From positions 4,704,001 through 4,768,000 of the forward strand of contig CM000150.2 in assembly GCA_000004695.1 (NCBI GenBank): a DNA stretch of 64,000 nucleotides. Reading direction: 5' to 3'. Below are positions 54,927 through 64,000 of this stretch, piece after piece; the first letter of the stretch is position 1, and each line of letters opens with the position of its first letter. The DNA is from Dictyostelium discoideum (taxonomy: Eukaryota). The notes under the pieces are model-generated. The model did no database searches, was not told the DNA's origin, and was given only the letters and a program-made list of their open reading frames with translations. The position numbers were made by a program, and so were the translations under genes.

Positions 54927-57900
54927 CTACCAATCAACATTTGATTTTGATTTTGAATCACCATTATAAATACTAATGATTGAATCAGTGGCACCAGCAC
55001 CCATTAAAATATTATAAGGATGAAAAGCGACACATGAGACAGGACCAATTCTTTGACCTAAAAAGCCATCATGATAACGAATGGTACAAACATCTTCACC
55101 AGTGAAATTCATAATTTTAATTCTTTGATTTTGAGAGCCACAAGCAATCAATGGAGCATATTCGTGGACAGAGAAAGAAGAGATGACATCATTATTGTGA
55201 ATAGTGGTTGAAGAGCATTCATAAGAATGTTGCCAAAATTTGATTTCACCTGTACTACTACCAGAGACCACTGTTTTACCACCTAAACTTGCTGGCATTG
55301 AAACGTTTACAATGTAGGATTTATGTTCGGTCAATGTTGAGACACAACTATATTTTCCAGGTATTCTTTGATCGAATAATTTCACTAAACCATCAGAGAA
55401 ACCCGCAGAGAATAAAGGACCTCTCTTTTCATTGGCCATACAAGTTACCACAGATTCCGTACCAATGAAAATATCTTGCACACCTAATTCCCTCTCGACA
55501 TCCCAAATTCTAATCTTTGGAGAGTCTGGAGTTTCACCAGAGACCAAAACCAAACCACTATCACCTTTCCAATCTAAAACGAGACGACCAATTGGATCAT
55601 TACCAGTGGTGGCAAATTCTGGAAAAGCTCTCCAACTTGAAACCATTTTCAATGTATCATTACTCTCGTAGCCTCTCCAAATTCTAACGACACCATCATC
55701 GGCGGCGGTGATAATCATTGACGGATCATAATCATTGACCAATTTCATACTTGTGATACGAGTGCCTGACATATTACAATTGTTAAAAGTATTGATACGT
55801 TGACCATCATCATAGTTCCAAACACTAATATTCTCCAAGCCATCGGAAACCACCAATATATTATCGAATGGATGAAATTGTAAATGAGAGATTGGTTGAC
55901 CATTTGGCTCGGCGAAAATGGTCATTTGTGAGAAAGATTTTGGTGGTTGTTGTATAATATTTTGAACGGCCTCTTTAGACTCTTGAATGATCATTTCATT
56001 TCTTTGACGTTTCCATTTCTTTTCAATACTTTCAAATGATTCGAAATCCTCACCAGTAGATTGCATCATTGGTTTGGAGAAGTAATTACAACTCCATTCA
56101 TAATAGTCTGAATAAAGTTCATCCTCTTCAAATGGCATTGAATCTGATACCATTAAGAAATCGTTTTGTAATGATTGACTGCTTGAATTCATTGATGAGA
56201 TTGATTGTGACATTTTATTTGTTTTATTACCACCTAATCCACTTGAAAGTGATAATGATTGAAAAGTATTTGCCAACTGATTACCTAATCCATTATTATT
56301 ATTTATATTATTATTATTACCATTACCATTATTATTTATATTATTACCATTATTATTTATACTACTATTATTATTATTATTATTATTTATATTACCATTA
56401 TTTATATTATTATTATTTAAATTTAATTGATTACCATTTAAATTTGTACCAACATTATTTGTTGATGAAGTTAAAATTGGTGATCTTTGATTTCCTAATT
56501 TTGTTTTTGTTGGGGATCTTGGATCTCTATTGGTTATACGTGATATATTTACAAATGTATTTCTAATTGAACTATTACTATTATTTAATCCAAATCCACC
56601 ACCACTACTACCTCCTAAATTATTATTACTACTATTTAAATTACTTCCATTCATACTAGCACCTAAATTACCATTACTACTATTTAAGAATCCACTACCA
56701 CTACTATTTAAACCATTCATACTACCATTTAGGTTATTAAAATTGAAATTTGTACGATTGATTAGATTATGTGACATTAATTCTTCCATAGAGAATTTTG
56801 AAGAGATTCTTTTTACAATGGATTGTGCACGATTAGCAACTTGATCGAATGGATCTGTACAAAGGTTTAGAATGATTTTCCAAAGACAACCATACACTGA
56901 TGATTGTGAACCATTACCATAGAGATCACTATTGTTATTTAAATGATCAGCATCTGATATCTTTGGTACGGATGCACGTTTCTTTGATTTTCTTGATTCC
57001 TCTAAACGTTTTGCCTCTAAAACTGCACGAAGTCTTTCCTCTTGTGCAATCTCTTGAGCGACTTGTACAAAGTTACTCTCATAGGAGGAAACGATTCTGG
57101 ATAATGATATAACCAATTCCTTTCTTACCATTGGTGAACAATCTGCAGTGATGACGGCAAGGGTGAGAGCAAGATTTAATTCGATATTAGTTCTTTGTTC
57201 ACTTCCTTCTGCACCACCAATTAACTCACCCAATGCAACGACAGCCGATGCTCTAACCTCTGGTGAGACATCTGTGAGAAGGAGACATAATTTCTCATGG
57301 GCATTCTCTTTGATTGCAGCCCATTTAGCCTCTTCAAAGTTCTCCCACATTTTTGCCATACAAAGTATCATCCATCTACGTACCATTGGATCTGGATCAT
57401 TCAATTGTGATAAACAGATGGGTAGGAGGTTACCAATGAGACATGCATTTTGTCCGGGTCTACAGTTGTTACAAATTGTCGAGAGTACAAAAGCAGACAT
57501 TGTTCTTTGATCGGCTGGAATTTGTGGTGATGATAAGACACTTATGAAATAGGCATGACCATTCTCTTTAACTAAATCCAATTGACAAGATTTATCCAAC
57601 GCCAAAATCTTGGCCCAAATAAACACCAAGATATGACGTAAATCTCCAGCTGGTGATTGTAACAATTTCAAAACATAAGGAAAGATACCAACACAAAGGG
57701 CCAAATTAACAGCCCATGGTCCAAGATCTAAAAATTTACCCAACAATACCAATGCACGTAAACGATGTGCTTGACTCAATAAAACTTGTAATACAATTGG
57801 TAATTGTGCTGGTGGATCTTTATGTTCGGAACCAAATTCCAACCAAACTTCGAATGCTGTCAATTGTTCAGTGAAAAATGGTGATGATTTAAACTCGGCA

Positions 57901-59425
57901 TTTGGATCAGCCAATAGGGTTGGTAATTGAGAGATAACCAAATCAACAGCCAAATCCCAAGCCTGCCACATTGCATGCTGATAGGTTGGTGGTAATCTTG
58001 GACAAGAGATGGGAGTGCAATTTGCCGATCTCATAATTCTCTCTGCCAAAAGATAGTTTCTGAACAATGATGCCACCAATAGATCTTGACGGAATAACTT
58101 TTGAAACAAATGTCTTGGTAATACATTCCATGCAATAGTATCGGTTACAGCAGTGAAAATCCAATTCAATTCACCCAATGGGGTTCTTCTACTACTTAAA
58201 TTACCTGGTATCTTATCGAGCATATCAGCAGTGATACCAGTCAATATTGAATGACTACAAAACCATCTCAAAGCGATTCGAATTGGTGTTGTTAAACATG
58301 CTGTAAACATATCCGCTGGGAAATCTGGATTCATTGGTAAAATTTCATTTGCACTACATGCCGCCAATAAAATACAATCACGTTGATGTGATGATGATGA
58401 ACTACTACCACTTTGATTATTATTTACACTATTACTACTACCCATATTTGGACTATTAGTATTACTATTATTACTTGAATTATTATTTGAATTATTATTA
58501 TTTTGTTGATTATTTCCATTTGTATTTCCATTTGTTGAGTTTGTAGTATTATTTTGATTATTTTGATTACTATTTTGATTATTATTTTGATTATTATTTT
58601 GATTATTACCACTAAATCTTTCTAATTCTTTATCACGTTGTTCAGCAAATTGATTAAACCAATTAATGATTAAACCTGCAGCAGAACAATCGAAAACATA
58701 AATTGATGGTGTACCCATCCAAGTTTGTAATTCATAAATTGATAGGGGAATATATTGAGTGAAATTTCTATTGAATACCCAAATCTCACCATTGGTAGTT
58801 GGTTTAGGAACACCATGACCATTGTAATGAAATAATACACGTTCATCCTTTGCATTTCTACGTAATGATAAACAAAGTTTTTTAACTTCTTCAACTGTTG
58901 GATCCAAACTTTGCTTATATCTTGCTTTCGATTGCCATTTCTCATATTGTGCCTGTAATGTCTTTCCAATCAAATCTAATGCTTTCTGTGGTGGTTGTGT
59001 AGATGGATCAAACCAACATTCCATTCTTGCACAAGGAAATGTTTTAATTACATCTGGTGGATCAACCCCAATATTTAAACATAATACTAAAGCAACACTA
59101 ACAGTTTTCATCTTTTTTTTAAAAAAAAAAAAAGTGTAAGTAATTTAAAAAAAAAAAAAGAAAAGAAAAAAAAAAAAAAAAAAAGAAAAAAAAAATTTTA
59201 AAAAACTAACCTACTCTTTCTCTCATTCTCCATTTTGCAATCTTTGTTTTTTGAACATCAGGTGTTGCATTATCTTTATGTCTTTCTTCACCAAAAAATG
59301 GTTTGTTTTTATTATTGTTGTTATTATATTTCTCTTTTTTCTTTGCTTGTTGGTGAGTATTGCTAATGTTACTAACATTGTTGTGGTTATTAACATTCTC
59401 GTTATTATTATTATTGTTATTATTA

Positions 59426-59463
<38 letters not shown>

Positions 59464-59555
59464 ATTATTTACTCCATTCACATTATTACTATTAATGCTA
59501 TTATGAAGTCCACTTGAATTTGCTAAATTCGAACTACTGAAATTATATGATTTAT

Positions 59556-59559
<4 letters not shown>
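54927..59559 (-). CDS. raptor: Raptor (regulatory-associated protein of TOR, TORC1 subunit) (2 exons, intron 59112..59214)
   Basis: Exon 1 (59559..59215) ends ...KTKIAKWRMRER. Exon 2 (59111..54927) begins MKTVSVALVLCLNIGVDPPDVIKTFPCARMECWFDPS...LFHYNGHGVPKPTTNGEIWVFNRNFTQYIPLSIYELQTWMG. It is near-identical in order to the human Raptor RNC/caspase-like domain. HEAT-like and C-terminal WD40 repeats follow (WNYDDGQ, VSGSSTGEIKFWQ). Large N/Q/S-rich inserts are present. Confidence 0.92.
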
Positions 59560-59608
<49 letters not shown>

Positions 59609-60028
59609 ATTATCTTTCGGTTATCGTATGTATTATTACTAAAAATTTATTCTATAAAATTGAATCTTTAATTGTTTTTTTACTTTTTTTTTTTTTTTTA
59701 TTTTATTATTTTTTTTTTTTTTTTTAAATAACTATAGTTTTATTTTTATTTATTTGTTTATTTTTTTCACTTATTATTTTTTAAATTTAATTATTTATTT
59801 AACCACACCACACAATATGTGTGTTTTGTTTAATTTAAAATATAAATATTACACATAAATTTTAAGTTATATAAAACAAAATAAATAAAAAGAATTGGTT
59901 TTATTTTTAATTTTTATTTTTTTTACTATTTTTTGAGGGTTAAAACTATCTATAAAATTACAAAGGTATCAAAAAAAAAATAAAAAAATAAAAATCAAAA
60001 AAAAATTTTGAAAAAAAAAAAAAAAAAA

Positions 60029-60068
<40 letters not shown>

Positions 60069-60420
60069 ATTTTTTCGAATTTAATTTCATTGGAAGCATT
60101 GCTTCAAAAAAAAAAAAAAAAAAAAAAATACCAAAATAATACTAACTTCAAAATAATTTATTACTGGATCGAATATTTTCAAAAATAACATCTATTCATT
60201 ATTTTGGGGAATATTATTATTATTATTATTATTTTTATTATTTCAATTACTATCATTTTTTTAATTTCCATATTTAACACAATATTGGGAATCCCGCGCA
60301 AAAAAAAAAAAAAAAATATTAATTTTTAATTTTTTTTTTTTTATTCACCCGTTTTATTATTTTTAATTTTTTTTTTTTTAGAAGGAAAGAAGAGATTCAA
60401 ACTAATAACTTATCACAAAC

Positions 60421-61812
60421 ATGGCGGGTGAAAATTATTGCTCAGTTTGTGAAGGTATTATTAGCACAGAGAATGATTTGGCGGTTTGTTATAAATGTAA
60501 AGAAGAGATTTTCCATAAAGCGTGTGGAAAAAAAGTATTTGACTCCCTTAGATGTCTTAATTGTGGACCAATTGAAAAGGTAATTTTTTCATTCACAATA
60601 ATAAATAAATAAATAAATAAATATAAATATATATAATGTTTTTTTTTACTAATAAATAAATATAAATATATATAATGTTTTTTTTTTTTTTTTTCTTTTT
60701 TTTTTTTAAAATTAAAAATTATGTTTTTATATAAATGATAAGAGTAGAGATCATTAAGTCATCAAATAGGAGAGATATCAAAAGGTAAAGCTAAATTAGA
60801 AACAAGAACTAGTAGGTTCACAGGTATAAATGTAACTAAAGAATTTATTGAAAGTGGTGAATATGGAATAAGTAAAGGTGATGATGATGATGATGGTGAT
60901 TATGTTGGTGGTGATGATTCATCAAGCGATGATGAATACTTTGGTAATCCAACAGTCCTAAACAATTATCCAACTACTATGAATGTAATATATAAAATTA
61001 TTTCCAATATTTTTTTTTTTTTTTTTCCTGAACCCCTAAAAAAATACTTATACTAACCTTTTTTTTTTTTTTTTTTTTTTTTTGTATGTAAAAAAGAATG
61101 TTGATTTAAATTTTCCTACATTTTTTTTATTAAATGAAGATATGAAAAAACGAAAACAAAAAATAAAAGAAGATGGAAATAATGAAGAGATTAAAAAAAT
61201 TGAACAAGAAGAAAAAATGATTATTCAAGAGTATCAAAATGAAGAGATTTTAAAATTTTTTGGAGATAGGAGTTGTTTTAAACAAACTCAACTTGCATAT
61301 GAAGCAATGGTTCAATGTTTAAAAGATTTGAAAGAGTCAATTGAACGAATGTTTAAAGTTGTTAGCGTCAAAACTTTAGGTGATATTAGTAGTTTCATAT
61401 CAATGTCGTATCCTAAAAAGAGTTTATTGGATATTAGAGATATAGCATTAGAATTGATTGGTCAATCCATTGATGACAGTATCCATCATATACCAACATC
61501 AATACTTTATACAAGTTCATCATCACCAGAGGTTGCACAATTATTTCAATCGGTTCCATCCAATGTAATGATGAGAATTAAATCACATCAACCATTCAGT
61601 AGTGATATTAGTTCACATTTATGTGAACCACCAACCATAACATTAAATCCTGATTGTTGTAATACATTTAAATCAACCGTTTCAACCATTTGTCATTCAT
61701 TAACCAAAGATTATGATGTCACTAAATTCCCATCACCACATTTTGAAGATTTATCACGTTGGTATTCAAATTATTTCTCAATACCATTAATTCAAGAAGT
61801 TATTGAATTATT

Positions 61813-61903
<91 letters not shown>

Positions 61904-63412
61904 AAAGATAAATTAGAAGAAATAATGTTAGTTAGAACACCAGTTATATTGGTTATTGAAGATTTTGAAACATGGAATTCAGAGGTATTATCAGATCTTA
62001 TTCATTTACTTTCAGCATATCGTCATAGGATACCATTTGTATTATCATTTTCAATTTCAACAAGTGCTGATGCAATTCATAAAGTTTTACCCTATCAAGT
62101 GGTGTCACTATTAAATTTAAAATCACTTCATCTTCGTTCTCAAAATGAAATGTTTGAACAATTAGTAAAACATTTATTTTTAAAAAGTCAACCATATATC
62201 ATTAGTAAAAAAGCTTATTTATATTTATATTATAATTTTAAAAATTCTTATATGTCACTTTCAACAACAATATCAGTATTAAGAGTATGTATATATGCAA
62301 ATATATTACTTATTAATAAATTAAATATACTAATTTATTATTATTATTATTATTTATTATCTATTCTTATTTATATAGCATTTTATTATTGATCATTTTT
62401 TAGAGAATGGATTATCATATTTGACTTTAGATCTTTCAAATTTTCAAATTGATTTAAAAGATGATGATGATGATATGGATGGTTGTTCAACAATAAAGCT
62501 TGAACCTGAAAATGATTCAACTGATTCAACTGTTAACGATGAAGTAGGAACAGGTGATAATATTGATAATGATAATGTATCAACACATGGTGAAGAAGAT
62601 ACACCCGATAGTCTTGTCAAAAGTGATATTGAATGTCAAACATTATCATACTCAAGTGATGATGAAAGAAATGATTATGATACTTCAACAGATTCTGATA
62701 ATTGTTCTAATTTTCATAAAAAAAAACCTAATAGTAATAATAGAATTAAAAGTGATTTAGAGTGTAATGATAATGATAAGGATAATGATGATAATGATAA
62801 TGATATTAATGAAAATAATAATAATATTAATAATAATAATAATAATAATAGTAATAATGATGATAATGATAAGGATTCATTTGGACCAAAAAGAATACCA
62901 AATCAAAGATTTGTAACCTTAATTCAAAAATTACCATCTTTAAATACAGATGAAATTGAAAATTCAAAGATTTCAACAAATAGAAAACTAAATAAATTAC
63001 AAAGTAATTTAATAATATTTAAAGAGAGTAGACCAATAATGTTGGAATTATATTATACGATTCTATCGAAATTCCAAAAATCAAAAACATTGAAATATTC
63101 AGAACTACTCAAGAAAATATCATTAAATGATAGAAAATCATATGAAACATTAAGAAAGACAATTTTAACAAATCCAGAATCCAAACAATCAATTGAAACA
63201 TTATTAGATTTGTTGAAAACCTCAAGACATCACTTCGAAAGAATTATCAAAGCCACCAATAGTTTAAAATTATTCCAAACACCAAAGAGCAAAAAGTATC
63301 AGGATTTAGTGAAAATTGAAAATCTAATTTTAAAATGTAGAACTTTGTCAAATAATTTTAAAAATCTATTATTACCTCCAGATGAACAATCAAAATCTAT
63401 TAAAAATGAAAT

Positions 63413-63482
<70 letters not shown>

Positions 63483-63668
63483 AAAATTGAAAATGAACAA
63501 AAAAATTGGAGCATTAAAAAGAAAAGAGAACATCAACTTCGAAATATTCAAAAACCAACAGATTCTTATTTTAAAATTTATTCAAGAGAATTTTTAGATG
63601 ATATAGTTTCTGTTATTATAGAGTAAAATTTTTTATTTTTATTTTTTTTAATTTATTTATTATTTTTA

Positions 63669-63703
<35 letters not shown>

Positions 63704-64000
63704 TTCAATTTTAGGGATTATTTATATCCTCCATTAGTTTCAGTGCCCTTATCAGAAATATTTGATTTTACCCAAACAGTATTCATTACCCAAAGTAGAT
63801 TCAATTTCCATACAGCAGAAGGAATTAACGATAATTTAATACATTCAGTAAGAAAATTAAAATGTGAATGCTGTATTGATTCTCTTTGTGGTACTATGGA
63901 TGATTTTTCAATTTCGTTTGTACCATTTTATTTTATTTTATTTTTATTTTATTTTTTTATACAAATTTGTATTTAATACTAATAATAATATTTTTAAAAA
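60421..64000 (+). CDS. orcC: Origin recognition complex subunit 3 (ORC3) with an extra N-terminal PHD-like zinc-finger exon. It has at least 5 exons and is 3'-incomplete at the window end.
   Basis: Exons are 60421..60579 (C4HC3 finger), 60748..60984, 61097..62284, 62406..63622 and 63715 to beyond 63910. Exon 3 contains RTPVILVIEDFETWNSEVLSDLIHLLSAYRHRIPFVLSFSISTSADAIHKVLPYQVVSLL, collinear with human ORC3 (PVVVILKDMESF...LPHAVSSLL). A TACTAAC branch point precedes the exon 3 acceptor. Confidence 0.7.

Follow-up and report, generated by a model that had tools for sequence, protein, structure and literature searches.

Background

Outside budding yeast, the way in which the origin recognition complex (ORC) finds origins is, for the most part, still a matter of chromatin cues. 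The accessory readers vary by lineage: ORC1 carries a BAH domain, which like the PHD finger of plant ORC1 is a chromatin-binding module gained by an ORC subunit, and fission-yeast Orc4 carries AT-hooks. Fingers of the PHD type usually bind a short peptide, most often the tail of histone H3.

According to the account of Sanchez & Gutierrez (2009) given in PMC7058166, a PHD finger is inserted in the ORC1 of green plants (Arabidopsis ORC1a/b). The same 2020 survey of ORC evolution (PMC7058166) names a PHD insertion only for ORC1 of green plants and leaves dictyostelids unmentioned. Our literature searches gave no report of such a finger in the ORC3 of dictyostelids.

Here we describe the 5' part of the ORC3 gene of Dictyostelium discoideum, located near the end of a 64,000-nt stretch of genomic DNA, in the following called the window (contig CM000150.2, positions 4,704,001 to 4,768,000). 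Based on the comparisons below, we give a probability of about three in four that positions 60421-60984 are the first two coding exons of ORC3, and that they encode a zinc finger and an acidic appendage of dictyostelid ancestry.

Structure of the ORC3 gene

The features of the gene and its upstream region are listed in Table 1. The window has a GC content of 24% and contains long Gln and Asn runs, in keeping with a genome of the D. discoideum type; so is the dictyostelid origin of the closest ORC3 relatives (see below). Exons and introns of ORC3 contrast sharply in composition, with GC fractions of 0.27-0.35 and 0.03-0.15, respectively (exon 1, 0.35; intron 1, 0.08; exon 2, 0.32; intron 2, 0.15; exon 3, 0.27).

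Table 1. Positions in the window of the ORC3 exons and introns, of the encoded N-terminal features and of the upstream spacer.
Feature	Position	Strand	Description
Intergenic spacer	59560..60420		861 bp, 13% GC, long A and T runs
ORC3 exon 1	60421..60579	+	53 codons; finger only; start ATG downstream of two in-frame stops
C4HC3 PHD-like finger	60439..60564	+	first ligand C7 to last C48; seven Cys invariant in four dictyostelid species
ORC3 intron 1	60580..60747	+	168 nt, GT..AG, GC 7.7%, phase 0
ORC3 exon 2	60748..60984	+	79 codons; Ser-x-Ser (S55, S57), basic stretch (K..LE.R, R73), acidic tract
Acidic Tyr-containing tract DDDDDGDYVGGDDSSSDDEYF	60880..60942	+	residues 98-118; D98, D100, Y105, D109, D110 invariant in four species
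ORC3 intron 2	60985..61096	+	112 nt, GT..AG, GC 15%, phase 0
ORC3 exon 3	61097..62284	+	canonical body begins; Pfam ORC3_N from residue 155 (nt 61163); first ATG = M148 (61142)
ORC3 intron 3	62285-62378	+	between exons 3 and 4
ORC3 exon 4	62379..63622	+	ORC3_N end (residue 543, about nt 62423), Asn/Asp-rich insert, second Gln run
ORC3 intron 4	63623-63714	+	between exons 4 and 5
ORC3 exon 5	63715..63919	+	GT donor at 63920 probable; gene runs past window end (64000)

The product of exon 1 is MAGENYCSVCEGIISTENDLAVCYKCKEEIFHKACGKKVFDSLRCLNCGPIEK, and the exon ends in AAG followed by a GTAATT donor (60579/60580). Four AG dinucleotides are found at the 3' end of intron 1. Only the AG at 60746-47 leads into an open frame, and the other three are followed by stops within a few codons. 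Exon 2 contains no ATG before its last-but-one codon, and its 3' boundary reads AAT followed by GTAATA. Since exon 2 is open without a start codon of its own, it needs exon 1. A stop-free run of 79 codons has a chance of approximately 4e-4 at the composition of exon 2, under a mononucleotide model. Both the exon 1/2 and the exon 2/3 junctions are in phase 0, and the frame stays open into ORC3 at 61097. The preliminary description of this DNA, made from the letters alone, had proposed that exon 1 encodes only the finger and is spliced in frame through an acidic exon 2 into the ORC3 body; the phase-0 GT..AG junctions, together with the continuous exons of related species described below, bear this out. 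It should also be noted that intron 1 harbors a tandem duplication of approximately 39 nt (60614-60691), in which AAATAAATATAAATATATATAATGTTTTTTTT is present twice.

The same description had pointed to a textbook TACTAAC branch point ahead of exon 3. The motif is indeed present in intron 2 (61051-61057), 38 nt before the acceptor, and is followed by a T run and by the first downstream AG at 61095-96. However, TACTAAC occurs seven times in the window against 5.7 expected and is not over-represented; its occurrence here is consistent with a branch point but is no evidence for one.

The spliced product matches the Pfam ORC3_N model (PF07034) with 212.7 bits (cut-off 25) and E=1.2e-62 over residues 155-543. 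It is also matched by the ORC3 chains of the Drosophila (E=4e-13) and human (E=2e-10) structures. A run of approximately 29 Gln (61817-61903) lies inside ORC3_N, directly before a conserved (I/V)EDFE.W motif. Exon 4 encodes a second Gln run at about 63412-63480 and a long Asn/Asp-rich insert at 62440-62880. Such low-complexity inserts, here within a conserved replication protein, are typical of D. discoideum.

Upstream, ORC3 is head-to-head with a gene for a Raptor-like protein of the TOR complex, which is encoded on the minus strand (54927-59559, exons 59559-59215 and 59111-54927, 1509 aa). Its ATG at 59559 is divergent from ORC3 exon 1, and the 861-bp spacer in between is presumed to be a promoter region shared by the two genes. 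Lying upstream of exon 1, this spacer is a natural place for the exon 1 promoter. In Polysphondylium violaceum, Raptor (L001:1-801) is also located upstream of ORC3, on the same strand (tail-to-head) and with a 76-aa gene in between. The Raptor/ORC3 neighborhood is conserved between the two species, with one of the genes inverted.

The module in other dictyostelids

An exhaustive HMMER search over 1.84 billion cluster representatives gave 297 ORC3-family proteins. The best matches were those of Acytostelium subglobosum (XP_012756104.1) and P. violaceum (KAF2073041.1), and the protein of Cavenderia fasciculata (XP_004350173.1) ranked thirteenth. The searches turned up no ORC3 of D. discoideum or D. 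purpureum. The comparison of dictyostelids made here is between these three species and the D. discoideum sequence of the window. The gene models of the relatives are predictions, and the continuity of their open reading frames was taken straight from their DNA.

The ORC3 proteins of A. subglobosum and P. violaceum start with a C4HC3 finger that is followed by a run of Asp. For C. fasciculata, the annotated model (GL883029.1, DFA_11230, L002:3001-10058) is a fusion of a PIF1-type helicase with ORC3. An intron annotated at L002:6288-6476 is 189 nt long, open and in frame, and encodes the second half of the finger. Reading through it restores CYMC-x19-CSKC-x4-H-x3-C-x10-CMNC as well as the acidic tract, and the true start of this ORC3 is probably MARPKKKK at L002:5967. 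The C. fasciculata orthologue is thereby shown to be mis-annotated, as a side result of this work. Comparison with other dictyostelids, which the preliminary description had put forward as a check, thus finds the same N-terminal module in all three relatives.

The positions of the introns differ between the species. In A. subglobosum and C. fasciculata, the genomic DNA encodes the finger and the acidic tract within one exon. The first intron of P. violaceum is found at the same place as intron 1 of D. discoideum, just past the last Cys pair and in phase 0, and the second sits within the acidic module. The P. violaceum sequence YIYIPPQDDDD, equivalent to GDYVGGDD in D. discoideum, is encoded together with the ORC3 core on one uninterrupted exon of 801 codons. 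Where D. discoideum needs splicing to cross a junction of the module, one relative or more thus has an unbroken open reading frame, and it is on this comparison that the assignment of the three exons to one ORC3 gene is based. The introns concerned are 65-112 nt long, which is too short to separate two genes, as a terminator plus a promoter would not fit.

In all four species, the module follows the pattern of a finger, Ser-x-Ser and then an acidic D..DY[VI]..DD tract. Invariant in the four N-termini are the seven Cys, S55, S57, R73, D98, D100, Y105, D109 and D110; otherwise they are just 22-33% identical. Conservation of Cys, Ser and acidic positions over deeply diverged dictyostelids indicates selection on the module as a protein. 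The Ser-x-Ser, the basic stretch and the acidic tract have evolved alongside the finger, which suggests that these parts make up one composite unit for docking or regulation. Within the acidic tract lies an SSSDDE stretch, which we take to resemble casein-kinase-2 sites.

Ligands and class of the finger

The ligands of the finger are C7, C10, C23, C26, H32, C35, C45 and C48, giving the Cys4-His-Cys3 order found in PHD fingers. The spacing is C-x2-C-x12-C-x2-C-x5-H-x2-C-x9-C-x2-C; the preliminary description had the order and all other spacings exact, but counted 11 residues in the first loop. Two zinc ions would presumably be bound. The classical PHD consensus is C-x2-C-x(9-21)-C-x(2-4)-C-x(4-5)-H-x2-C-x(12-46)-C-x2-C, and the D. 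discoideum finger fits it save for the last loop, where 9 residues fall below the 12-46. Across the four species this loop between ligands 6 and 7 has 5-11 residues, the spacing from ligand 4 to 6 is one residue above the PHD canon, and the relatives have H-x3-C instead of H-x2-C. In D. discoideum (C-x5-H-x2-C), H32 (60514-60516) is shifted downstream by one residue relative to the His of the three other species (C-x4-H-x3-C); the gap between the Cys flanking the His is 8 residues in all four. Two residues ahead of the seventh ligand, the four species have F, F, F and L, an aromatic or hydrophobic residue as in PHD fingers.

When all PDB sequences were searched with a profile built from the four fingers, the top matches were the PHD fingers of EBS (E=0.0026) and BPTF (E=0.0029), followed by those of KMT2D and PHF2 (E up to 0.09) and then of PHF13, MLL and Pygopus. 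The alignments span all eight ligands. In hhalign, the four-species finger matched a PHD set of eight fingers, two taken from the PDB matches of the profile and six entered by hand, with a probability of 89.7% (E=1.8e-6, 46 columns), as against 1.6% for a RING control set. None of the four sequences reached the gathering score of Pfam PHD (PF00628). The best result was E=0.21 in one species only, and for D. discoideum the model was not listed at E<=10. The best Pfam match of the D. discoideum finger was Prok-RING_1, with 19.9 bits (cut-off 29.1), and sub-threshold matches of the fingers also include the double zinc ribbon, C1 and Zn_ribbon_9 models. A profile search of exon 1, as suggested in the preliminary description, hence finds PHD fingers first with the four-species profile, but no single sequence passes Pfam PHD. 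Domain surveys at Pfam thresholds overlook compact fingers of this kind.

The reading of the finger as C4HC3 and PHD-like is upheld by the profile matches, and we consider it likely that the finger is a miniature, divergent member of the PHD type. For the putative cross-brace that would bind two zinc ions, the AlphaFold models were of little use, with a pLDDT of 45 (single-sequence) and 54 (three-sequence). A Foldseek search with the better of the two, itself of low confidence (pLDDT 54), gave no match at E<=0.001.

Other zinc-binding classes were considered and rejected. In RING (C3HC4), the His would be the fourth ligand, and here it is the fifth; the hhalign probability of 1.6% and the sub-threshold Prok-RING_1 score also speak against this class. 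RING-CH has a C-x-C pair and x7-H, and here the second pair is C-x2-C with the His after 5 residues. The consensus of the C1 domain is H-x12-C-x2-C-x13/14-C-x2-C-x4-H-x2-C-x7-C, with a first His located approximately 13 residues ahead of the first Cys. In the finger, this Cys has only six residues in front of it, none of them His, and the C1_1 model scored 14.5 bits (cut-off 26.5).

The position of the Trp in the H3K4me3 cage, two residues before the His, is occupied differently in D. discoideum (EEIFH), P. violaceum (SIIH) and C. fasciculata (KDTH). Among the four species, the cage Trp is kept only in A. subglobosum (CENCQRWCH), and D. discoideum has E/I in its place. For this reason, reading of H3K4me3 through an aromatic cage is unlikely, and methyl-lysine reading is an unlikely candidate for the conserved function.

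Distribution and age

In none of the 147 other top ORC3 representatives did we find a similar Cys/His cluster ahead of the ORC3 domain; those identified among them come from fungi, a sea star, a choanoflagellate, Capsaspora and, within the Amoebozoa, Balamuthia mandrillaris. This agrees with the earlier claim that such a finger is missing from metazoan and yeast ORC3. Many of these proteins start directly with an S-K-G-C-F-V-F-K-P motif, which in animal and fungal ORC3 is found within approximately 10-40 residues of the N-terminus. A profile of this motif (S-K-G-C-F-V-F-K-P...KKRK, 32 ORC3) matched D. discoideum best at residues 142-154, where exon 3 starts, with -1.4 bits, which is not significant, and was not used.

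In established taxonomy, the deepest splits among the dictyostelids are those between Cavenderia, Acytostelium, the violaceum complex and Dictyostelium proper. The four species thus span these splits, and the gain is dated to a time when the lineage had already parted from Balamuthia-like amoebae but Dictyostelia had not yet radiated. By this comparison, the module of approximately 130 residues was present already in the common ancestor of Dictyostelia. The preliminary description had presented the finger as an acquired, lineage-specific trait; it is indeed absent from the ORC3 sampled outside Dictyostelia, but the gain belongs to the ancestor of the group and not to D. discoideum alone.

A metagenome scan with the ORC3 alignment gave 600 pattern matches, none of which was confirmed. 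One ENA metagenome protein of 1246 aa (P0147) is a eukaryotic ORC3 with a long N-terminal extension and a Cys4 motif, CSCC-x13-C-x2-C, at about residues 185-215. Being far upstream of the ORC3 domain, this motif may be an independent zinc-ribbon-like addition.

Alternative explanations

Exons 1 and 2 could form a separate gene for a zinc-finger/acidic protein of about 155 residues that ends in intron 2, with ORC3 starting at M148. Reading on past exon 2 does meet a stop 23 codons later, an in-frame ATG is found within exon 3 (61142), and the Pfam ORC3_N match starts only at residue 155. However, merely about 90 nt with 15% GC would separate the stop from the next ATG, and a GT, the TACTAAC, a T run and an AG follow each other in this gap in the right order and phase. 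In three species spanning the group, the module lies ahead of ORC3 and on its strand, and P. violaceum has part of it in the exon of the ORC3 core, which is unexpected for two independent genes. We regard two separate genes as very improbable. A single gene might instead produce its main ORC3 from an internal promoter and start at M148, the form with the finger being an isoform that is minor or restricted to certain stages. Like the N-terminus of many ORC3, M148 has KKRK after it, but the conserved Cys, Ser and acidic positions indicate that the module is under selection as a protein. Further, the short intron 2 offers no evident space for a promoter, and P. violaceum and C. fasciculata have no intron placed to permit the same start. 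An internal start as the main form is improbable, and we retain one ORC3 gene with the module at its N-terminus.

The finger may also be real and part of ORC3 without being a reader of histones or chromatin. It would then be structural, or bind another partner such as an ORC or Cdc6 subunit, a kinase, or DNA/RNA; in one variant, it might fold as two successive zinc ribbons and not as a PHD cross-brace. The loops are short, the residues of the histone cage are unconserved, the structure models are uninformative (pLDDT 45, 54), and the weak Pfam matches are to double zinc ribbon, C1 and Zn_ribbon_9 and not to PHD. The profile-level evidence, on the other hand, consistently points to histone-reader PHD fingers rather than RING, and other ORC subunits have repeatedly gained chromatin modules, e.g. 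the PHD finger of plant ORC1 (PMC7058166). We consider a role other than chromatin reading a serious possibility, if one with somewhat less than even odds.

Proposed role of the module

Because the module is N-terminal to where other ORC3 begin, it probably forms a flexible appendage that is located outside the ORC ring and core. Its most likely role would be to tether ORC to a chromatin protein. Such a tether would help to choose or stabilize origins where extreme AT-richness gives little sequence specificity. Possible roles of the acidic tract are binding to a basic partner, e.g. histones, or regulation through phosphorylation at the SSSDDE sites. We tentatively propose that the module could be a chromatin tether for ORC, a reading that falls short of an even chance.

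In its fullest form, the proposal would be that a dedicated ORC3 appendage recruits the dictyostelid ORC to chromatin. A mini-PHD would read the tail of a histone, or another chromatin protein, and the acidic Tyr motif next to it would bind histones. As a complete account this is rather unlikely. If true, dictyostelids would have arrived independently at a solution comparable to the PHD finger of plant ORC1 and the BAH domain of metazoan ORC1, and this could explain the choice of origins in a genome of approximately 78% A+T. ORC3 with its conserved PHD-like finger and acidic tract would add an independent example of a lineage-specific accessory reader, in a genetically tractable organism, and the module would offer a concrete handle on what specifies origins in Dictyostelium.

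Comparison with known systems

The human and Drosophila (5uj8, 7jgr) proteins represent animal and fungal ORC3 in our comparison. The D. discoideum body matches these from residue 155, and the dictyostelid relatives likewise carry a C-terminal WHD_ORC domain (PF18137), which is on record for ORC3 of P. violaceum, A. subglobosum and C. fasciculata. Unlike D. discoideum ORC3, which has 132 extra N-terminal residues, animal and fungal ORC3 have no zinc finger. The D. discoideum protein also differs in its Gln- and Asn-rich inserts.

Among the H3K4me3 readers, the fingers of BPTF (2fui/2f6j), EBS (5z8l) and PHF2 (3kqi) are the best profile matches. The eight ligands align, and both sides have a hydrophobic strand before the third ligand (DLAVC in D. 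discoideum, LMVQC in EBS), but E is only 0.003-0.09. The readers have a cage Trp in C-x2-C-x2-W-[YF]-H, which in D. discoideum is replaced (EEIFH). The loop between ligands 6 and 7 has 9 residues in D. discoideum, whereas that of the readers has 15 or more.

The PHD finger of green-plant ORC1 resembles the dictyostelid one in being a lineage-specific C4HC3 addition to an ORC subunit, outside the AAA+/winged-helix core, and in being interpreted as a link between ORC and chromatin. The plant finger is located within a BAH-PHD cassette of ORC1, whereas the dictyostelid finger is found on ORC3, at the extreme N-terminus. The dictyostelid finger is also far more compact and divergent, falls below the Pfam PHD threshold and has no conserved cage Trp, and it is followed by a conserved acidic tract.
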